Positions 1,092 to 29,142 of a stretch of 64,000 nt of DNA are shown here, one piece after another. Every line of letters begins with the position of its first letter. Within the stretch, counting starts at the first letter, position 1. The DNA comes from Escherichia phage KEP4. The stretch lies in the sequence record PP047754, one strand, 5' to 3'. Under the pieces are notes generated by a model, which saw only the letters and a program-made list of their open reading frames with translations, ran no database searches and had not been told where the DNA came from. Both the position numbers and the translations under genes were made by a program.

Positions 1092-2873
1092 ATGGCCACG
1101 CAAACAGTTCCTTCACTCGACGTCAGAGCATTTGAATACATTATTAAACAGCGAATGAAAGCTGATCCCACCTTTAAAGATTATGACTTTGAAGGTTCTG
1201 GTCTTAGTGCGATTATTCGTTTGTTGGCATCTGACGCGAACGCCATAGCCTTTATGCAAAACATGCTTAATGGTGAAGGCCATTTGAAGACAGCAAATCA
1301 ACGTTCAAACGTCGGTTTATCTGCTGCATTTCTTTCCTACACGCCTGACAACTATCGGGCAGCATACATGTATGTCAACATCAAAGTTACGCCTTATGAC
1401 GCCAGCACAGCCCCCAATGAGATCATCATGGATCGGCGCGTAATGTTCGTTGGGGCAAAAGACGGCAGTTCCTACAACTTTACTGTTGAGAAACCAGTGT
1501 CGGCAACGTTGACTGCAGACGGTTATTACATGTTCAACAATGTAAAGTTGATACAGGGGAATTGGTTGTACAAGACATATGATGTTGAAGGAAGCGCGAT
1601 TTCAACATATACGATTCCTTCTGGGAATGTCGATATCAATCATATGGTCGTGCAAGTACAAGAATCAGAGTCTTCCGACGTTTCGACGACATATCAACGT
1701 TACAACAGTCCATTTGATCTGAGCCAATATGCCTACCTGTATTTCGTAGAATTGGGTATTGATGGTCTGTATGTGTTTGAATTCGGAGATGGTTATCTTT
1801 CGCGTCGAGTAGAAGATGGGAACGTCATATTCCTTCAATACTTAGAAACTTCTGGTGCTGATGGGAATGATATCACAAGCCTGTCATCAGCGTCATCCAT
1901 AGGCGGGTTTAACCAGGTCGATGTAGAATTGGTTTCCGAACGTAGCGCAGGTGGAGACGATCCGGAATCTATTGAGGACACTAAACGGTTGGCTCCTTTA
2001 GCTTATCAGGCTGATGGTGCTGCGGTTACAGAAACAGATTATGGTGTATTGACTGAAAGGTTATTCTCCAACGTCTCCCGAGCTAAATCATATGGTGGTG
2101 ACACGCTGTCTCCTCCTGATTCTGGCTATGTTTACATCGCTGTTATACCTTCTGTTGGTGAGACACTTTCGGACGCTGAGAAGGCCGATATCGTTGCTGC
2201 TCTGGACAAGTATAATGTGGGATCTATTACCCCCAAAGTGGTAGACTCCGAGATCACATATATCCAAGTCTCAACGACTATATTTTGGGATCCGACTTCT
2301 ACAGTCTACGTTGAAGAACAGATGAAAGTTGTTGTTGGAAACAGTATCGTTAAATGGGGTGAAAATAATCTCGGCGGATTTGACCAATTGTTTGACAAAG
2401 AAATATTGCAGGAAGCAATTACAAAAATGGAGCGTTCTATTAACTCGAATATTACTTCGGTTGGTTATAAACGCCATTTCAAACCCGATTATGGAGTCTT
2501 AGACAGTTTTACATTCAGTTATGGAAGAAGTATCAAACCTGGTTCTGTGAAAATAACGGGGTTCAAACCGCTTCCTGCCGAGGTGGATTTCACTTACTAC
2601 ATGCGCGACAATAATGGCGATTTGAACATGTATAAAGTGAATAACAATGACACGACAAAAGAGTTTTTAGTTCAAAAAACAGGGGTTGTAGATTATGCAA
2701 ATGGGGTTGTAGACCTTCAACAGATCACAGTCTCCAACTATAACCCTGAAGGGGTGACCATAGTCGTGTTACCGGATGGACTGAACCAGAACATACAGGC
2801 TACACAAAACCAAGTATTCAAGATTGGTGATGTGGTTGTTACGCCAGAGGTGCGCTATGTCCAAAGATCTTAA
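1092..2873 (+). CDS. baseplate wedge protein (T4 gp6-like), tentative
   Basis: 593-aa ORF; track start 1041 is TTG, ATG at 1092 has GGAG 6 nt upstream; position at head of the baseplate/tailspike block; product by synteny and size only. Confidence 0.5.
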   Translation: MATQTVPSLDVRAFEYIIKQRMKADPTFKDYDFEGSGLSAIIRLLASDANAIAFMQNMLNGEGHLKTANQRSNVGLSAAFLSYTPDNYRAAYMYVNIKVTPYDASTAPNEIIMDRRVMFVGAKDGSSYNFTVEKPVSATLTADGYYMFNNVKLIQGNWLYKTYDVEGSAISTYTIPSGNVDINHMVVQVQESESSDVSTTYQRYNSPFDLSQYAYLYFVELGIDGLYVFEFGDGYLSRRVEDGNVIFLQYLETSGADGNDITSLSSASSIGGFNQVDVELVSERSAGGDDPESIEDTKRLAPLAYQADGAAVTETDYGVLTERLFSNVSRAKSYGGDTLSPPDSGYVYIAVIPSVGETLSDAEKADIVAALDKYNVGSITPKVVDSEITYIQVSTTIFWDPTSTVYVEEQMKVVVGNSIVKWGENNLGGFDQLFDKEILQEAITKMERSINSNITSVGYKRHFKPDYGVLDSFTFSYGRSIKPGSVKITGFKPLPAEVDFTYYMRDNNGDLNMYKVNNNDTTKEFLVQKTGVVDYANGVVDLQQITVSNYNPEGVTIVVLPDGLNQNIQATQNQVFKIGDVVVTPEVRYVQRS

Positions 2874-3711
2874 TAATGGACACAACGGGGTTAAGTATGA
2901 AACTCCGTTGTTCTACCAGAATGATTTCCCTCTGTTCATAGAATTTATGGACACGTTTTTCAATTGGCTGTATAGACAGCAGGGGTTCACTCAAGAAGAG
3001 ATCTTGGCATATCTGGCAGATACGTCTAGTTGGATGAATCCCGAGAGTGAAGATTCTCCGGTTAAACAGCTGATTGATTTAAAGGCTGACAAGACTCCAG
3101 GCTCAGAGGCCAAGGATTATTTGTCTGATAAATTCTTGGTTCGTACCTTTGAGAACATGATGGCTCTGGATGCCGAAGAACTTTTAGATGCCGACGGAAG
3201 GCCGCTATTGTCAATAGAAGATAAGAACAAACAGATAGATGACTGGTATAATGATTTTGGTTTCCAACGAACTGTTGATAAATCATTTCAGGAATTTGGT
3301 CATTTTATCCCAGTTGGTTCGGATTCTTTGCTGACGGCAACGGGAGACAGGTTCTCAGTTTACATTGAAGGAACGAAACGGAGAACGCTAGATCATCCAC
3401 GTTGGTTGAAACTGTTAAAACATATCTATAAAATCCGCGGAACCAAGAAAGCAATTGAATTGTTCTTTTGGATATATTTTGGTTGTCCAGTCAGTGTCTA
3501 TTTCCCAAAAGAGGAAATAGGCGGTCTGGATGGCAATTTTGAATGTGACGGTATGACAGGGATGCGTGATGACTATTATTATGATGAGTACACTTACGTG
3601 ATAAGAGTCCCAGGCGACGTATCTGATTTCGAAGGCGTATTTGAACGTGTCTTCCGTCAGCATTTCCATCCTGCTGGGTTTACTGTATTCCTAGAAAGTT
3701 CAAGGAGCTAA
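2857..3711 (+). CDS. putative baseplate/tail structural protein (284 aa)
   Basis: ATG at 2857 with GAGG 7 nt upstream, overlaps upstream gene by 17 nt; no motif recognised. Confidence 0.5.
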   Translation: MSKDLNNGHNGVKYETPLFYQNDFPLFIEFMDTFFNWLYRQQGFTQEEILAYLADTSSWMNPESEDSPVKQLIDLKADKTPGSEAKDYLSDKFLVRTFENMMALDAEELLDADGRPLLSIEDKNKQIDDWYNDFGFQRTVDKSFQEFGHFIPVGSDSLLTATGDRFSVYIEGTKRRTLDHPRWLKLLKHIYKIRGTKKAIELFFWIYFGCPVSVYFPKEEIGGLDGNFECDGMTGMRDDYYYDEYTYVIRVPGDVSDFEGVFERVFRQHFHPAGFTVFLESSRS

Positions 3712-3713
3712 AA

Positions 3714-4904
3714 ATGGCCGATTTCCTGAGTCAATATACAGGTCAGCAGATAGATCAGATATTGGGTTCTGTTGACGACAAAGTAAGTAAAAATGACGTT
3801 ATTAACGATTTTGAAGTTAACGACCCATTGTTTCCACCATCTGCTCGCCTGACATATGAGTTGAAAAGATCTGTTGACACAATCAATGATACTCTGGCCA
3901 ACAAAGTTATTCGTACAGATAGTGGTGAACAAACAATCAATGGCAAAAAGACTTTCAATGCGTTGTTGGTGACCAATGGGGGCATACAAGTCCCCGCCGG
4001 AAAATCCGTTTCAATCACAGATGAACCAACGAACTCGACAGATGGTGTTAACCTGAGCATGTTGAGAAAGCATGGCGTCAGTGAAGACACTACCCCGCCT
4101 GGTTCTGGTTTGGCTGGGGAGTTGTTGACATCCGGATATTACAAATTCAATTTGGATTTCACCAGATTGTCTGCGTATACCGGACCAACGTTGCCGACTT
4201 CAGTTCCTGTACAGACAGATTCTGGAGCGCGTTATTGGACAATGACTGCATTTTTTGATGCGTTGTTTGCAGACAACCGATTTAATGGATATGTGACAAC
4301 GACAGCGTATGACGCAGATATGCTGAGTCTAGAGTCTCAAATTAATAACATCAACACGTCGTTGAACGGGAAAGTCAACACCTCGACTTACAACACTAAG
4401 ATGGCGTCGTTGGATTTGAGTATCTCCAATATCAACACGTCTCTGGGTAATAAAGTCGAGGTCAGCACATATAATACGAAGATGACTTCCTTGGACGGCA
4501 GTATCAGTTCTCTCACGACTGGTAAGGTCGATGTATCAACGTATAATGCCAAAATGACCACAATTGATAACAGTTTAGGGAACGCAGTTTATCGCACAAA
4601 AACAAACTTGTCGTCATACACGGTTTCGGCTTCGGGAACGACGGCTCTTCCAGATTTTGATTTGGTGAACCTTTGTCAAATACTGGTAACTGCGCAATGG
4701 GGGACAGGTAACGTTGTTGACACATATCGAGTAACCATAACTCGTGACGGAACGATCAAATCAGAGTTGTTGGTTCAGAAAAGTACGAGTGGTACAGTGA
4801 CGTTCACAGGGTCTGTGGTGGGCGGTAAATTGAGAATTTCCGTTGTTAATGCGAATACAACAACTGCTTGTTCTGTCGATTATTCTATTGCAGCTTCTTT
4901 CTAA
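3714..4904 (+). CDS. tail fibre-like protein with tandem 27-aa repeats
   Basis: 396 aa; N-terminal KVIRTDSGEQTINGKKTFN fibre-type motif; central repeats NINTSLNGKV-TSTYNTKM-SLD. Confidence 0.6.
   Translation: MADFLSQYTGQQIDQILGSVDDKVSKNDVINDFEVNDPLFPPSARLTYELKRSVDTINDTLANKVIRTDSGEQTINGKKTFNALLVTNGGIQVPAGKSVSITDEPTNSTDGVNLSMLRKHGVSEDTTPPGSGLAGELLTSGYYKFNLDFTRLSAYTGPTLPTSVPVQTDSGARYWTMTAFFDALFADNRFNGYVTTTAYDADMLSLESQINNINTSLNGKVNTSTYNTKMASLDLSISNINTSLGNKVEVSTYNTKMTSLDGSISSLTTGKVDVSTYNAKMTTIDNSLGNAVYRTKTNLSSYTVSASGTTALPDFDLVNLCQILVTAQWGTGNVVDTYRVTITRDGTIKSELLVQKSTSGTVTFTGSVVGGKLRISVVNANTTTACSVDYSIAASF
4347..4580 (+). repeat. two full and one partial 81-bp in-frame tandem repeats inside the fibre gene
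   Basis: units start at 4347 and 4428 (aacatcaacacgtc / aatatcaacacgtc); third unit degenerate. Confidence 0.6.
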
Positions 4905-4909
4905 AACTA

Positions 4910-4946
4910 AATACCCCTAGATGACATGAATACATTTAGGGGTATT
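4910..4946 (+). promoter_or_regulatory. hairpin fused to late-promoter box (CTAAATACCCC at 4907-4917); 10-bp stem aataccccta/taggggtatt
   Basis: perfect inverted repeat 4910-4919 / 4937-4946; right-arm GGGG lies 8 nt before ATG 4951. Confidence 0.6.
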
Positions 4947-4950
4947 ACAA

Positions 4951-7900
4951 ATGGCCAACAAACCAACACAGCCTCTTTTCCCTTTGGGTTTAGAAACTTC
5001 TGAGTCTTCGAACATAAAAGGCTTCAACAACTCCGGCACTATTGAGCATTCCCCTGGTGCCGTAATGACATTTCCTGAAGATACTGAAGTTACAGGTCTT
5101 CCATCTTCTGTGCGTTACAATCCTGATAGTGATGAATTTGAAGGTTATTACGAAAACGGTGGTTGGTTGTCTTTGGGTGGCGGCGGAATACGCTGGGAAA
5201 CGCTCCCTTACGCTCCCTCTAGCAATTTGTTAGAAGGTCGCGGCTATCTCATTAATAATACGACAGGGACTTCTACAGTGGTTCTCCCTTCCCCTACGCG
5301 CGTTGGTGATTCAGTTACAATTTGTGATGCCTATGGGAAATTCGCGACGTATCCATTGACTGTATCTCCAGCGGGAAATAACCTGTACGGCTCCACCGAA
5401 GATATGACGATATCCACCGATAACGTGTCGGCGACTTTCACTTGGTCTGGTGCCGAGCAGGGTTGGGTTGTTACATCTGGTGTTGGCCTCGGCCAAGGTC
5501 GTGTGTACAGTCGTGAGATTTTCACTCAAATTTTAGCATCTGAAACAAGTGCTGTCACTCTCAATACTCCACCAACAATCGTGGACGTGTATGCTGACGG
5601 AAAACGTCTTGCGGAATCCAAATATTCACTAGATGGGAATGTAATCACTTTCGACCCTTCTTTACCTGCCAGCACTGAATTGCAGGTAATAGAATATACT
5701 CCGATTCAGTTGGGCACTGGCGGCGGGGGTTCGGGCGCTTCTGCAATCACCTGGATTTACAATGGCGGATCCGCTATTGGTGGCGAAACCGAAATAACGC
5801 TAGATATCGTTGTAGATGATGTTCCGGCTATTGATATAAACGGGTCTCGTCAGTACAAAAATCTTGGATTCACGTTCGACCCATTGACGAGTAAAATCAC
5901 TCTGACGCAAGAACTGGAACCAGAAGATGAAGTTGTTGTGGTTATAAATGGGACACCAAACATTTATAACCAAATCGATCGTTCTTTACAGGAAGTTGCT
6001 CGCGCCTACAATTTTACAAATGCTCAAGTTATTTTGAGCAACGATTATACTTCTGTTCTGGATAATAAAGTCGTTATTTATGATACGACATCCCAACGTT
6101 CTTGGGGGATTCCATCTGGAATCCCAGCAGGTTCTACAGTGGTTTCCGTCAATGGGGATCAACTGAAGTACAAAAATGGATCAACTGAAACCACTGTTAC
6201 ATTGGTGAGTGTACCAGGTAGTGCAGAGAAATTGAAGAACGATCTGGCTTCAAACTCTGGTTCAGGTATGTTGAAAACTTCTAGAGGTGATACCGTAGAA
6301 GAAGAATTGACTTTCATTAATCAGAATATGGTCGTTCAAATTTCAGATTTCGCGAGTCTTAGAACTTTAGTGCCAGCCACAGCGGGTATCCGAGTCAAAT
6401 TGAAAGGTTATTATTCTGGTTCTGAAATCGGTGGCGGAGAATTCATTTCTGTCGCTGGAGATGCTGTTGATGATGCTGGGATGATTGCTCGAGTGTCAAG
6501 CAGCTTCTATTGGAAGAGAATTATCGACAAACACATTACTCCTGGCATGTATGGCATCAAAGGGAATCTTCCAGAAGATCCGGCAGTGAAACTGAACGCT
6601 ATGTTTACGGCTGCGGCTGCGGCTAACGCTTATGTCTTACTGAACGATGTCGACACTCTGGTCTGTAAAAGCCCTGTCGTGATTCCAGCACATTCATTAG
6701 TGTACGGCAACAAACGAACTATACTGAAACGTGATGCATCGTTGTCATATGCTAATGATTTCTTGACAATTATGAATGATTCATATGTCAAGGGGATCTA
6801 TGTTGATGGTAGCCGTTTAGATTCTCAGACTCCTCTAGAAGCAGTTTTGGTGCGTATCGCTGGGAATGTAACTATCCATAAGAGTGAGATCCGAAACAAT
6901 GCTGGCTATGGCGTTGTTGGTAACGCAGTCCCTGGTATTCGTATCACCAAGAACATTTTTTCCAACTTCGCCAAAGGTTGTGTAGCCATGTTTGGCGACG
7001 GAACAGCGACGAGTGATGATCTGCAAATTAATGATAACAGATTCTTTAACCTGGGCGCGGGAACCATTTATGTTGGCGGTTACTCAAACTTCCTTGTCGA
7101 CAAAAACGTCGGAAGAGGCACTTACGTGGGTTCTCCAGGAAACCGTCTGTATGTTGTGACCAATACTAACGGGACTATCACCCAAAGCGCTGGGCCAGAT
7201 TTTGGGCCATTGAAAACGGGTATGTTCTTTGTATTGCCTGGTGGTTCTGAACATATGATAACGGCGGTCAACAGCCTTACCAGTGTGACAGTAACCCCAC
7301 CACCGCCGTCGAACGCCACAGTTCGTGCAATCGCAGGGACAGGGGATCTTCTGGGCATCCAATCATGCTCCTACGGCACCATCAGCCGTAACAACCTGAC
7401 CGATTGCGTGACTTACGGAACTGGTGGAGGCACGATGGAGGGGAGCACTCTGGGTTGCAATTATGTCACTTGGGAAGACAACTTCATCCGCAACACAGGT
7501 AAGAACGGAATCAACGTCGGGCAATCAGGCGCTGGGGTTGCCACGTGTTCTATCCTGAGGAACACTCTGATACAGGTTGGTAACGGCGGTCAGGGTGTTG
7601 GCCCAGCGTATCTTCTGCCTTGGTTCGATACGCTAGGTATCGCTCTGTATCAGGGAAACCCAGGTTATATGGCGAATATGGACGTCAGTGATAACAACGT
7701 CTCTACATGGTCTGGCGATCTGAATGACGGCGCTGCTTGGTTTGGTATGAGCGGTTGTACGGAAGCCACTGTGACTTGTACAGGCAACAAATCTTCTGGT
7801 TATTCCGACGGCTATGTTCGTGGAGATATATTAGAAGTCACGTTGACAGGTTATGGTACAGGGGCGGCTGCGACTTCATTCGTTAGTGATGGTGAGTCTA

Positions 7901-23105: not shown

Positions 23106-23804
23106 ATGGCCAGACCATTTGAAAAATATTTCTACCATGAATCGTTGTTGAAATACATTCATGTCTTCAACGCTATCATGTCAGATTTAAAAGTCAAAAC
23201 CGAACGTGGCTTGATGGAAATCCCGCTGCATATGGCTATTGGCCGTCGCAATGACCTCAACAGGAACGTGCCAGCCAATATGCTGCCATTTGCGACTATG
23301 TCCTTCGGTCAATTCGAAATTAATAAACAAGTGACCAAGTCGTATCATAATCAGATATCGACTGCAACTGCGCGGTCCAAACAACGAATTCCGATCATTA
23401 TAGATTTTGAATATAACATCAGAACGAAGAAACTGGTCGAAATGCTACAGGTGTTGGAACAAATTTATTCTGTGTTCACTCCTTCTATTGATTGTCAGAT
23501 AAAAGACAACGATACGTTATCTCAAGATCAAAACGTGAAGATTATGTTGACATCCCATACCATTTCCGATAACTGGGAAGGGGATGCCGCTGAATCACCC
23601 CATATAGATTGCACCTTTAATTTTCAATTACATGGGCACATTTATGGCGAAGATTATTGGGTCGATGACGGCTCTGGCGGTGGTGATCCGAACGTTATCA
23701 AAGAGATAATTATTGAAATGTCTAATGATTTGAACACGCCATGGTCGGAACTGCCTGAGTGGTTCCGAGTTGACAAAGATGGCATACATCATCCGGAGGA
23801 TTGA
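23106..23804 (+). CDS. tail sheath stabiliser / tail terminator (T4 gp15-like)
   Basis: 232 aa; synteny and loose similarity to T4 gp15. Confidence 0.6.
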   Translation: MARPFEKYFYHESLLKYIHVFNAIMSDLKVKTERGLMEIPLHMAIGRRNDLNRNVPANMLPFATMSFGQFEINKQVTKSYHNQISTATARSKQRIPIIIDFEYNIRTKKLVEMLQVLEQIYSVFTPSIDCQIKDNDTLSQDQNVKIMLTSHTISDNWEGDAAESPHIDCTFNFQLHGHIYGEDYWVDDGSGGGDPNVIKEIIIEMSNDLNTPWSELPEWFRVDKDGIHHPED

Positions 23805-23806
23805 TC

Positions 23807-24487
23807 ATGAGCAATATGTCAGAAAGGTTACTTGCGACGCTAGACGCGGTGACTGCCAGAGATGAAGTTGGTAAGGAGGCGATGGAAGCCGTCTCTCCAC
23901 GTCCAGGTATTGACTTCGATGAAAAAACGGGCGAGTGGTTTGGTGAACGCCCAGAAGGTTATCAGCCGATTCCAGAACCTCCATCATTGGAAGATATCGC
24001 GTCCAAAGAATCCAAGGTTCCGGAGTTTGCGGATACTGATGCCACAACAGATTACAAGCGGATACGCGACACAACATATGCCATGCAAGAAGCCACGATG
24101 TTCATGATGGGGCAAGCTGCTAAATTAGCTGCATCTACCGAAGCCCCAAGAGCGTTTTCCGTGTTTCGTGAATTGGGCGAACTCATGCGCGGCCTGAACA
24201 AAGACCTGATGGAAAACCAAAAAACCATCAAAGCTGTGACAGGGGATAAAGAACCGCCGACTGATGACACAACCGTGGATGTTACCACTTCACCCGACGG
24301 GACCACAACAGTATCTGTTGGGAAGAAAGCGAGATCTTCGCGCGATTTATTGAAAACGATCGAAGATGCACGCCGCCGCGCTGAAGAACGCGCCCAGGCA
24401 AAAGCCACCCAACAAACCGAAGATGAAATTATCGACGGAGAAACGGTTGACGTGAAGGAAGAAGACGATGGCGTATCAGAAGCGTGA
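23807..24487 (+). CDS. terminase small subunit (T4 gp16-like)
   Basis: GGAGGA SD 6 nt before ATG 23807 (track start 23801 is TTG); segment MQEATMFMMGQAAKLAAS...FRELGELMRG resembles T4 gp16; directly upstream of TerL and overlapping it. Confidence 0.7.
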   Translation: MSNMSERLLATLDAVTARDEVGKEAMEAVSPRPGIDFDEKTGEWFGERPEGYQPIPEPPSLEDIASKESKVPEFADTDATTDYKRIRDTTYAMQEATMFMMGQAAKLAASTEAPRAFSVFRELGELMRGLNKDLMENQKTIKAVTGDKEPPTDDTTVDVTTSPDGTTTVSVGKKARSSRDLLKTIEDARRRAEERAQAKATQQTEDEIIDGETVDVKEEDDGVSEA

Positions 24488-26678
24488 TATAGAATATGCT
24501 CCGATAAAAACGGGGTTTAAAATCGACGACGTGAAATTGCGTATGGACCAGACGTTCATGCGCAAGCCTTCTGTGCGCGCTCCACGAGTCGAGTTGATGC
24601 TAACAGATGAACAAGAAGACGAATTTGTTGAATGTTCAATGGACGCGCATTACTTCGCTGCCAATTACTATAAGATAACGACAATCGATAAAGGCTTTAT
24701 CCTTTTCGATATGCATGATTATCAGAAACAATTATTTCACGATTTTCAAGATTATCGTTTCAATGCCGTTGTCCAGGCGCGTCAGTCCGGTAAATGCGTC
24801 CGTGGTGATACTCTTGTTTATGTCTATGATACAGTCAGTCAACAAGAGTTGCATCTCACCATAGAAGAGCTTCACAAGCGCTTCGAAGGACCGAACCATG
24901 CTGTGCCACTGAATACCATTGGCAACCACAATAAGTTTGTAGACAGCCGTTTCGGGAAACGATATTTTGTTGAGTCCGACACTGGCTGGGTTCCGGTTAT
25001 TGCCGCTCATAAAACGAAAGAATACGCTGAATACGTGGTCAGGACTGAAACCGGACGCACAATTCATGTCGCAGATGAGCACATGTTCTTCAATGAATAT
25101 GGGCGCGAAGTATTTGCTAAAGACATGGAGGCCGGAGATGCCATAATGACCCAGGAGGGAATAGAATTCATCTCTGAGATCTGGGAGACTGGTGAGTACC
25201 ACCACATGTATGACTTGCAAGTCAAGTCCAGCGATCAACGTTATTACACGAATGGGTTCCTCAGCCATAATACCACGGTCGTGGCTGCGTTTCTTCTTTG
25301 GTATGCGATGTTCCACTCAGACAAAGAAATCGCGGTACTGGCAAACAAAGAGAAACAAGCGATTGAAATTCTTGACCGTATCAGGAAGGCGTATCAGGAC
25401 CTCCCATTCTTCCTTCAGCAGGGTTGTGAGAAGTTTGGTTCTACACTGATAGAGTTTGAGAACGGCTCTAAGATATATGCTTATGCAACGTCTTCGGACT
25501 CTATTCGTGGTCGTTCTGTATCTCTCTTGTACGTGGACGAAGTCGCATTCATCGAAAATGACTTTGAATTTTGGGAATCAACATTCCCAGCGATCGCATC
25601 TGCTGATACTTCACGTTGTATTCTGACCAGTACTCCGAAAGGCCAGCGAGGGTTGTTCTATGATATCGTCACCAAAGCAGACCCGCGCCATCCGCAATAC
25701 AACGACTTCCATCTTACCGAAGTCCCTTGGTACAAGGTTCCGGCGTACACCAAAGACCCTGATTGGGAAACCAAACAACGCGCTCGTCTGGGGGATGCCC
25801 GTTTTGACCAGGAATTTGGAATCAAGTTCCGTGGTTCTGTAGGTTCATTGATACCAGCCAAATGCTTGGATAAAATGACATCCAAGTTATATCGAGAGCC
25901 TAATGAATTCACCAAAATTTACAAGGAATATGACCCGCAACGCATCTACTTCGGGATTGCAGATACGGGGAAAGGTGTTGAAGGAGATTATTCGGTTCTG
26001 ACAATTCTGGATATAACGGAATACCCGCATGTCATAGCGGCCAAGTACAGGAACAATACAATACCTCCGATGATGTATGCATACACGATAGCCGATATGT
26101 GTACTGAATACGGGGAATGCCCTGTCCTTGTAGAAACCAACAACGACGTTGGTGGACAGGTTATTACGATCTTGTATCAAGAAATTGAGTATCCAGAGAT
26201 CATATTCACGTCGACGGATAACAAAGGGACAGGGAAACGGATTGGTGGTCGTAAACCAGAGCCAGGCATTAACACCAACAGGAAAGTGCGATCTATTGGT
26301 TGTGCTAACCTGAAAGCGCTTATTGAGAAAGAAATGTTGGTGATTGAAGATCAAGACACGATAGATGAACTCAGCACATTCGTGTTCCGTGGTGCGCGTT
26401 ATGAAGCAGATGATGGATGTCACGACGACTGCGTTATGCCGTTGGTATTATATTCTTGGGCAGTTAAACAAGAATGGTTCAGTGATCTGACTTCTACCAG
26501 TATTTCTCAAGACATGAGAAATAGAATGTCTTCGACTGAGTCACAACAAGTATTCCCGTTTGGTGGTTTAGTCGTGGGAGACACTCCATCTGGAACTGAG
26601 CATCTCCCTGGGTTCGGTGGTGTTCAAGTCTTCGACGAACGTTCAGGGATGACCATGGATGAGTGGTTTAAGAATTGA
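24468..26678 (+). CDS. terminase large subunit (T4 gp17-like), intein-containing
   Basis: extein reads ARQSGK/TTVVAAFLLW (T4: SRQLGKTTVVAIFLAHF), downstream YVDEVAFI Walker B-like and nuclease region; 736 aa vs ~610 for T4. Confidence 0.9.
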   Translation: MAYQKRDIEYAPIKTGFKIDDVKLRMDQTFMRKPSVRAPRVELMLTDEQEDEFVECSMDAHYFAANYYKITTIDKGFILFDMHDYQKQLFHDFQDYRFNAVVQARQSGKCVRGDTLVYVYDTVSQQELHLTIEELHKRFEGPNHAVPLNTIGNHNKFVDSRFGKRYFVESDTGWVPVIAAHKTKEYAEYVVRTETGRTIHVADEHMFFNEYGREVFAKDMEAGDAIMTQEGIEFISEIWETGEYHHMYDLQVKSSDQRYYTNGFLSHNTTVVAAFLLWYAMFHSDKEIAVLANKEKQAIEILDRIRKAYQDLPFFLQQGCEKFGSTLIEFENGSKIYAYATSSDSIRGRSVSLLYVDEVAFIENDFEFWESTFPAIASADTSRCILTSTPKGQRGLFYDIVTKADPRHPQYNDFHLTEVPWYKVPAYTKDPDWETKQRARLGDARFDQEFGIKFRGSVGSLIPAKCLDKMTSKLYREPNEFTKIYKEYDPQRIYFGIADTGKGVEGDYSVLTILDITEYPHVIAAKYRNNTIPPMMYAYTIADMCTEYGECPVLVETNNDVGGQVITILYQEIEYPEIIFTSTDNKGTGKRIGGRKPEPGINTNRKVRSIGCANLKALIEKEMLVIEDQDTIDELSTFVFRGARYEADDGCHDDCVMPLVLYSWAVKQEWFSDLTSTSISQDMRNRMSSTESQQVFPFGGLVVGDTPSGTEHLPGFGGVQVFDERSGMTMDEWFKN
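24795..25271 (+). mobile_element. mini-intein (159 aa) inserted in the TerL Walker A P-loop between GK and T
   Basis: starts Cys (CVRGDTLV, block A), contains GRTIHVADEH (block B-like), ends FLSHN followed by Thr +1; no homing-endonuclease domain. Confidence 0.75.
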
Positions 26679-28683: not shown

Positions 28684-29142
28684 ATGATATACGCATACAA
28701 AATTGAAACGATAACTAATGGAAAGGTCTACATCGGTGTGACCAATCACCCACAACGAAGATATGATCAGCATTTTGCGAATGCTTTTCATCATGGAGTC
28801 CAAAGTGAATTGTATGATGCCATGCGTAAGTATGGAACATCTGGATTTACTTTCGTTGTAATTGCTCAGACCGATGAAGTCCATAAATGGGAATTAGAGA
28901 AGCAACTCATCGCTCAATATAATTCTTATGAGATGGGTTACAACATGAATAAAGGCGGTAATGATGGAAGTCATATGCTGGGTAAAACTGCAGCAAAATT
29001 GACATCTACAGGTGAACACATTGGTCTTGTTTCTCTCATAGATCCCCGTTGGGAATTGTGTGAAATCGAACCCGTTTTAAGCAATGTTGACCACGGATTT
29101 GATTTTTCTTCCATGAAGATTAAAAGATTGACGACTAATTAG
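28684..29142 (+). CDS. GIY-YIG nuclease (free-standing, homing-endonuclease-like; 152 aa)
   Basis: IYAYK...KVYIGVT...RRYDQH...E...YNMNKGG matches GIY / YIG / Arg / Glu / Asn catalytic pattern; inserted between sheath and tube genes. Confidence 0.7.
   Translation: MIYAYKIETITNGKVYIGVTNHPQRRYDQHFANAFHHGVQSELYDAMRKYGTSGFTFVVIAQTDEVHKWELEKQLIAQYNSYEMGYNMNKGGNDGSHMLGKTAAKLTSTGEHIGLVSLIDPRWELCEIEPVLSNVDHGFDFSSMKIKRLTTN

Follow-up and report, generated by a model that had tools for sequence, protein, structure and literature searches.

A class 1 mini-intein predicted within the P-loop of the large terminase subunit of Escherichia phage KEP4

What parts the ATP-binding loop of a phage terminase, and how would an active enzyme arise from the divided protein? 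The question is raised by terL in a 64,000-nucleotide (nt) stretch of Escherichia phage KEP4 (PP047754; hereafter the window, within which positions are counted). The gene encodes a large terminase subunit (TerL) in which 159 amino acids (aa) stand between the Lys and the Thr of the Walker A motif. Judged from its sequence and predicted structure, this insert is very probably an in-frame, contiguous class 1 mini-intein that lacks an endonuclease and lies within the P-loop at GK/T, the slash marking the insertion point. This reading is the best supported by profile matches, predicted fold, conservation, empty-site alleles and selection. The K/T junction in the P-loop of terminases is a textbook hot spot for inteins.

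Identity of the insert and its host protein

By its sequence, the host protein is a T4-type large terminase (gp17, Terminase_6). When the insert is removed in silico, the remaining 577-aa protein aligns to the T4 gp17 chains 3ezk/3cpe at E 5e-76, and the alignment runs unbroken through the splice junction (arqsGKTTVVAaFL against sRQlGKTTVVAiFLahf). The Walker A G-K-T is complete only once the insert is gone, and the protein then has the features of a T4-type large terminase. Terminase_6N (Pfam) covers TerL aa 269-460 (E 3e-16), starting only at aa 269, while Terminase_6C covers aa 498-629, and the genes around terL in the window follow the T4-like order gp14-15-16-17-18. A preliminary description of this DNA had reported a 159-aa insert with Cys as its first residue directly after ARQSGK, and had proposed that its removal restores a gp17-like GKT P-loop. 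All of its strings and positions are correct, and the gp17 alignment across the junction bears out the proposal.

Profile searches place the insert among inteins. On its own it scores 26.8 bits with TIGR01445 (intein_Nterm), above the cut-off of 24.5, and it matches TIGR01443 (intein_Cterm) weakly, at 11.9-13.4 bits against a cut-off of 15.6. Comparison of the insert with PDB sequences by phmmer recovered gp41-1 (E 8e-4), CatC (6dsl_B, E 0.003), VidaL (E 0.013) and the CDC21 intein; a PDB search with the N-terminal 52 residues returned chance matches only (TPR, Arf-like). No LAGLIDADG, HNH or other endonuclease family of Pfam or NCBIfam matches the insert. Protein searches with the insert alone found only a GenBank 'intein' mature peptide and one fragment, and a full-length TerL query was required.

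The predicted fold agrees with the profiles. An AlphaFold2 model of the insert, based on an alignment of 59 inserts at the same TerL site (the set used for all conservation counts below), has a mean predicted local distance difference test (pLDDT) score of 96.8 and a predicted template-modelling (pTM) score of 0.89. It forms one compact Hint domain, with short helices at intein residues 23-29 and 36-43. In a Foldseek search of the PDB with this model, the top 50 matches are all inteins or bacterial intein-like (BIL) domains, the best being VidaL (E 1.1e-10, template-modelling [TM] scores 0.76/0.83), and NpuDnaB reaches TM scores of 0.71/0.79. The similarity of residues 110-268 to Hint domains and inteins, proposed earlier as a check, was thus found in profiles, in PDB sequences and in the predicted fold. 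The earlier view that an insert without an endonuclease domain is a mini-intein fits both the single modelled Hint domain and the lack of any endonuclease family match.

The insert reads CVRGDTLVYVYD...YYTNGFLSHN and is followed by Thr269 (TTVVAAFLLWYAMF). Its conserved positions are those expected to act in splicing. The first residue is Cys in all 30 same-site relatives that include the N-terminal part, and Ala93, Asp94 and His96 (TerL His205) of block B are invariant in 59 of 59. At +1, Thr predominates: almost every same-site relative has it, and two have Ser. Cys1 is the sole Cys of the intein, hence there is no block F Cys of the kind that marks class 3. The motifs named in the preliminary description held up in part: the block A Cys, the terminal His-Asn and Thr+1 are conserved, but its 'TIH' is not block B, as the His concerned (intein His91, TerL His200) varies among the 59 relatives (Lys in 13, His in 11, Ile in 9). 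Aligned sequences indicate that the actual block B is ADEH, with His205, five residues from the earlier assignment.

Selection acts on the insert as on the rest of the gene. In unsaturated pairs (Nei-Gojobori), the ratio of non-synonymous to synonymous change (omega) is 0.027-0.073 for the intein and about 0.04 for the exteins. The coding sequence of the insert is under purifying selection and is maintained, as would be expected if failed splicing kills an essential enzyme.

Features of terL and its insert in the window
Feature	Position	Strand	Remarks
TerL precursor ORF (open reading frame)	24468..26678	+	736 aa, 84.7 kDa, stop included; annotated in relatives as terminase large subunit
N-extein, aa 1-109	24468..24794	+	ends in first half of Walker A
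ARQSGK, first half of Walker A, TerL residues 104-109	24777-24794	+	
Putative class 1 mini-intein, 159 aa, 18.6 kDa, Cys110-Asn268	24795..25271	+	from profiles, fold, conservation and annotation of relatives
Cys1 (TerL Cys110)	24795..24797	+	predicted N-terminal nucleophile; block A is CVRGDTLV
Intein residues ~32-46, short helical loop	24888..24932	+	nothing inserted in the window; split/endonuclease position in relatives
Block B, Ala-Asp-Glu-His, intein 93-96, TerL 202-205	25071..25082	+	aligned with block B of gp41-1 and CDC21
Block F, MYDLQV, intein 138-143	25206..25223	+	M138 and D140 in 59/59; V143 in 56/59
End of block G, His158-Asn159 (TerL His267-Asn268)	25266..25271	+	invariant in 59/59
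Thr+1 (TerL Thr269)	25272..25274	+	predicted C-extein nucleophile; Walker A Thr of GKT
C-extein, aa 269-736	25272..26675	+	remaining ATPase domain and RNaseH-like nuclease domain, colinear with gp17

Distribution, architectures and allele exchange

Empty alleles of the site exist in close relatives. Five intein-less clusters (P0015-P0019) encode TerL proteins of 575-581 aa that are 74-85% identical (BLAST) and are flanked at the site by RQSGK and TTVVAAFLLWY; one of them (P0016) lies on a contig of ~118 kb with the same gene order, gp13-14-15-16-17-18-19-20. A cultured phage, Erwinia phage phiEa2809 (Ackermannviridae, Nezavisimistyvirus), likewise has an intein-less TerL of 580 aa, which is 78.4% identical to the spliced form of the window protein over 574 aa with a single gap. 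Its DNA at the site reads ...CAGTCAGGTAAG directly followed by ACGACTGTG....

The occupied site is far more widespread. A tblastn search recovered the intein from 320 phage records, with identity reaching at least 60% in 278, and 282 records have a TerL ATPase region that is at least 80% identical. Nearly all sequenced enterobacterial Ackermannviridae carry the TerL intein, phiEa2809 being an exception, and the phage records with the intein represent viable isolates.

A survey of the top 120 TerL clusters revealed that 63 have at least 100 aa inserted at GK/T, in several architectures. About 30 clusters hold contiguous mini-inteins of 150-183 aa. Another ~29 consist of proteins that begin inside the intein (M..LSD..ERKF...) and continue into SHN/TT, and look like C-terminal halves. 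One of these, on a metagenomic contig (L013, positions 2405-5752), is a true split gene, in which an atypically split intein at GK/T divides terL between two genes. An ORF ending in ...SRQAGK plus a 31-aa N-terminal intein part (IntN) is followed by a 417-aa ORF and then by an ORF with a 124-aa C-terminal part (IntC) and the C-extein. The 417-aa endonuclease-like ORF has no Pfam match. Atypical splits of this type are known from AceL-TerL, GOS-TerL and Cat (PMC11766414).

Four further clusters (P0056, P0087 and P0110 among them) have inserts of 443-451 aa whose in-frame translation looks like junk. In L015, an ENA metagenome contig and the only one of these examined at the DNA level, the insert has ~290 extra aa, and a 294-aa ORF (1865-2749, plus strand) lies inside the TerL intein in another reading frame. 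This ORF is homologous to the free-standing ORF of L013 (E 6e-30) and has a faint restriction-endonuclease-like match (REase_MTES_1575, E 0.005). It appears, from these similarities, to be a homing endonuclease gene nested out of frame, an arrangement like the one recently described for actinobacteriophage inteins as 'endonuclease in a separate reading frame' (bioRxiv 10.1101/2025.01.02.630785). In these relatives the split or endonuclease position corresponds to intein residues ~32-46, and the intein of the window is the endonuclease-free form.

Two apparent additions to this series proved to be something else. Pfam annotation led us to suspect a GIY-YIG domain inside related inteins, but the domain lies after the ATPase domain, at aa ~500-590. 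In TerL of Vibrio phage VP-1 (P0084) it occupies aa 506-589, and it directly follows the ATPase domain in P0053, P0111 and P0099 as well. This suggests that terL has a second site of interruption, distinct from that of the P-loop intein, where an intron ORF or endonuclease gene has been fused in frame. In Klebsiella phage TTM-TASP117 (L012, PV588649, ~1880-1990), what looks like a 203-bp insertion within the intein is a run of N plus a 70-nt duplication, that is, a scaffold gap. TerL of this phage looks broken within the intein, and the coding sequences called there in the record are artefacts.

Comparison of inteins with their exteins reveals exchange within the Ackermannviridae. The window and CBA120, both Kuttervirus, share 99% aa and ~88% nt identity in the exteins, with a proportion of synonymous differences (pS) of 0.53, and only 79% aa and 72% nt identity in the intein, with pS of 0.78. 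In aa sequence the intein of the window resembles the Taipeivirus Magnus intein (84%) more closely than the CBA120 intein. Relaxed constraint alone was rejected as the cause of the divergence from CBA120, because pS itself is higher in the intein (two-proportion z ~4.4). Escherichia phage PC3 (Aglimvirinae) is a further case: compared with XF4 and SKML-39 its exteins are 96% identical and its intein 74-75% identical at the aa level, whereas compared with CBA120 its exteins have a synonymous divergence (dS) of 2.6 and its intein is 96% identical in aa, with dS of 0.34. The PC3/A221/AV101 group of Aglimvirinae thus carries a CBA120-type Kuttervirus intein allele. A chimeric assembly of PC3 does not account for this, as the allele recurs at 95% or more in nine records and falls short of full identity to Kuttervirus alleles, at 92%.

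Intein alleles are therefore exchanged between Ackermannviridae lineages by recombination, and their phylogeny is incongruent with that of the exteins. The DNA of PC3 (L011, 1630-2080) is 95-98% identical to that of CBA120 (L005) over alignment nt ~271-700, and the flanks are 78-85% identical. The exchanged tract begins ~70 nt 5′ of the intein and stops ~100 nt short of its 3′ end, limits that fit homologous recombination via conserved flanks rather than precise homing. The mini-intein may still be a moving element in the Ackermannviridae rather than a frozen relic.

It is conceivable, if doubtful, that free-standing homing endonuclease genes act in trans to drive this exchange, in a 'collaborative homing' of the intein. 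Candidate drivers may be F-LimIX or relatives of the nested and adjacent endonuclease ORFs of the metagenomic contigs. F-LimIX, a free-standing homing endonuclease gene (292 aa, with a NUMOD3 motif), separates terS from terL in Limestonevirus, Agtrevirus and one Klebsiella phage (509-1387 of L007, from Dickeya phage XF4; 509-1387 of L009, from SKML-39; 506-1387 of L012). It is absent from the window, where the 3′ end of terS (23801..24487) and the start of terL share 20 nt. No homologue of F-LimIX or of the intein-associated endonuclease ORFs was found in the window, and no second intein of the same family.

Elsewhere in the window, the interval from the tail sheath gene to the tail tube gene holds an ORF of 152 aa (28684-29142, plus strand) whose N-terminus (IYAYK...GKVYIGVT) is GIY-YIG-like. 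Its equivalent in vB_Hercules_SET is labelled 'endonuclease', and that phage has at this place an additional 263-aa minus-strand ORF that the window lacks; the intergenic cargo between these two tail genes is variable. The window (1-64000) holds no tRNA genes.

Splicing and the alternatives

The conserved residues suggest a course of splicing that would follow the standard class 1 pathway. Translation of terL would yield the 84.7-kDa precursor, in which the Hint domain folds. Cys110 would then attack the Lys109-Cys110 peptide bond in an N-S acyl shift, aided by His205 of block B, and form a thioester, after which the N-extein would be transferred to Thr269 by transesterification. Cyclization of Asn268, with the help of His267 and of Asp249 in block F, would free the 18.6-kDa intein, and an O-N shift would leave a normal peptide bond in TerL, now of 66.2 kDa and with its ARQSGKTT P-loop intact. 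A chymotryptic peptide such as NAVVQARQSGKTTVVAAF is predicted to span the junction of the ligated protein.

We infer that splicing does take place and that the unspliced protein has no activity. With its Walker A Lys and Thr parted by the insert, the precursor should be unable to bind ATP, and ATP binding and DNA packaging would fall to spliced TerL only. That DNA packaging depends on splicing is a sound deduction from this arrangement. Mycobacteriophage TerL inteins at or near the P-loop, where K/T is a classic intein site, splice efficiently in a reporter (PMC5050341), and Kelley et al. argued that splicing is necessary for the TerL active site and for pentamer assembly (PMC5050341). With no homing endonuclease of its own, the intein would persist since its imprecise loss would destroy an essential motif.

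Several observations weigh against a splicing intein. The PF14890 score of the insert (33.7 bits, E 4e-8) is just below the gathering cut-off of 35.8. The Thr of block B (TxxH), the usual aid to the first splicing step, is Ala throughout the same-site family, a variation that is not disqualifying. Thr+1 is the least common of the three nucleophiles, at 12% of Cys1 inteins (PMC11766414), and no splicing experiment on this TerL intein was found in the literature searched. The missing block B Thr and the PF14890 score, together with the BIL domains among the lower fold matches, would also suit a degenerate Hint-like insert that is tolerated as a surface domain or performs only BIL-like cleavage, leaving TerL to function either with the insert retained or as two pieces. 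We consider this very improbable, since every catalytic residue for full splicing is invariant, Thr+1 included (with the Ser of two relatives mentioned above), and the best fold and sequence matches are true splicing inteins. Moreover, the insert parts Walker A Lys and Thr within a phosphate-binding loop that is contiguous in gp17, and omega is 0.03-0.07. The idea that the insert is removed from RNA as a group I or II intron, or that it reflects an unrelated gene on the opposite strand, can be set aside almost entirely. Group I introns do occur in T4-like phages and a 194-aa ORF overlaps the insert (24732..25316, minus strand), but the insert is in frame, free of stops and predicted to adopt a Hint fold. 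No Rfam family matches anywhere in the window at the gathering threshold, which makes an RNA intron unlikely. The antisense ORF carries one to four stops in seven relatives; it is not conserved and is very likely spurious.

A different proposal keeps protein splicing and makes it conditional, as a post-translational switch (answering to temperature, redox state or a signal late in infection) that sets when active terminase appears and is kept for this benefit, not as a trapped parasite. Regulatory roles have been proposed for P-loop inteins (PMC5050341), and a beneficial switch would fit both the near-universal retention of the intein in enterobacterial Ackermannviridae (~278 of 282 close TerL records) and a purifying selection as strong as that on the exteins. 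However, a parasite in an essential motif would show equally strong constraint, the intein-less proteins of phiEa2809, Vibrio phages and P0015-P0019 imply that TerL does not need the intein, and the intein, with its one Cys, shows no evident sensor feature. A conditional switch is thus unlikely, and the reading as a mini-intein held in place by an essential motif is preferred.

Earlier reports and nearest known systems

The element, its exact boundaries, its host gene and the type of its insertion site are already known, and the preliminary description is a correct rediscovery. The terL DNA of the window is 99.4% identical to that of Escherichia phage Sa157lw, Salmonella phages Marshall, Maynard and Mooltan, and others, all Kuttervirus of the Ackermannviridae; the search returned 218 matching records. 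GenBank KF669653 describes Marshall_50 as an 'intein-containing terminase large subunit; intein from Cys110 to Asn268' and delimits the intein by a matching mat_peptide feature; the records of Mooltan and Klebsiella phage Magnus bear the same 'intein' mat_peptide annotation. The genome announcements of Marshall and Maynard (2013) reported the TerL intein from InterPro Hint and splice-site signatures (PMC3853055, PMC3868846), and the Magnus paper (2019) did likewise (PMC6763660). A TerL intein of Campylobacter phage IBB_35 had been published in 2012 (PMC3322345).

As a discovery the intein carries little weight, since it, its boundaries and its host gene have been in GenBank and in genome announcements since 2013. 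The additions made here are its distribution, the architectures of the family, the oversized inserts, the exchange of alleles and the correction of block B. The intein has some practical value, as TerL annotations are incomplete or wrong in most of the ~280 GenBank records. Most of the ~280 records with terL list a plain terminase or hypothetical protein and no intein feature, and the proteins of Dickeya phages phiDP23.1 and phiDP10.3 are mis-annotated as 'pretoxin HINT domain protein'. The natural split or endonuclease position (residues ~32-46) is now mapped. With a mini-intein, a split gene and an endonuclease nested out of frame as three architectures of a single site, and with exchange of alleles, the TerL family forms a compact natural series suited to studying how inteins gain and lose endonucleases.

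The intein of Marshall, Maynard and Mooltan is the same element, 100% identical in protein and with the same boundaries, Cys110-Asn268, and that of Magnus (Taipeivirus) is 84% identical. The reports on Marshall, Maynard and Magnus rest on InterPro matches only and do not include block mapping, structure, distribution analysis or a splicing assay. Other T4-type TerL inteins, from Campylobacter phages IBB_35 and CP21, Vibrio phage VP-1 and Salicola phage SCTP-2, are 33-40% identical over residues ~45-159 and diverge from the intein of the window in the N-terminal third; the Campylobacter phage terL, unlike that of the window, contains in addition an intron that carries an HNH gene. The mycobacteriophage inteins TerL1-a/b are likewise in the P-loop of TerL, but their host is Terminase_1 rather than Terminase_6, their lineages differ, and several carry active endonucleases (PMC5050341). 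In the survey of Kelley et al. (2016) the only Terminase_6 intein sat in the C-motif (PMC5050341).

The best match among PDB sequences, gp41-1 (6QAZ), is a small class 1 Hint domain of phage origin whose blocks come in the same order, but it is naturally split at the canonical site, resides in the gp41 helicase and is only ~19% identical. The closest solved relatives by sequence and fold are AceL-TerL, GOS-TerL, Cat (6DSL) and VidaL (6VGV), and CatC shares with the intein of the window the C-terminal end YYTNG-x-x-SHN. AceL-TerL, GOS-TerL and Cat are atypically split between two genes, with an IntN of only 25-37 aa and a long IntC of at least ~104 aa, whereas the intein of the window is a single ORF and would splice in cis. 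It is like a cis version of the AceL-TerL/Cat family and not a member of the split group, and thus offers a 37 °C relative, from a culturable phage, of the split inteins used for protein labelling.

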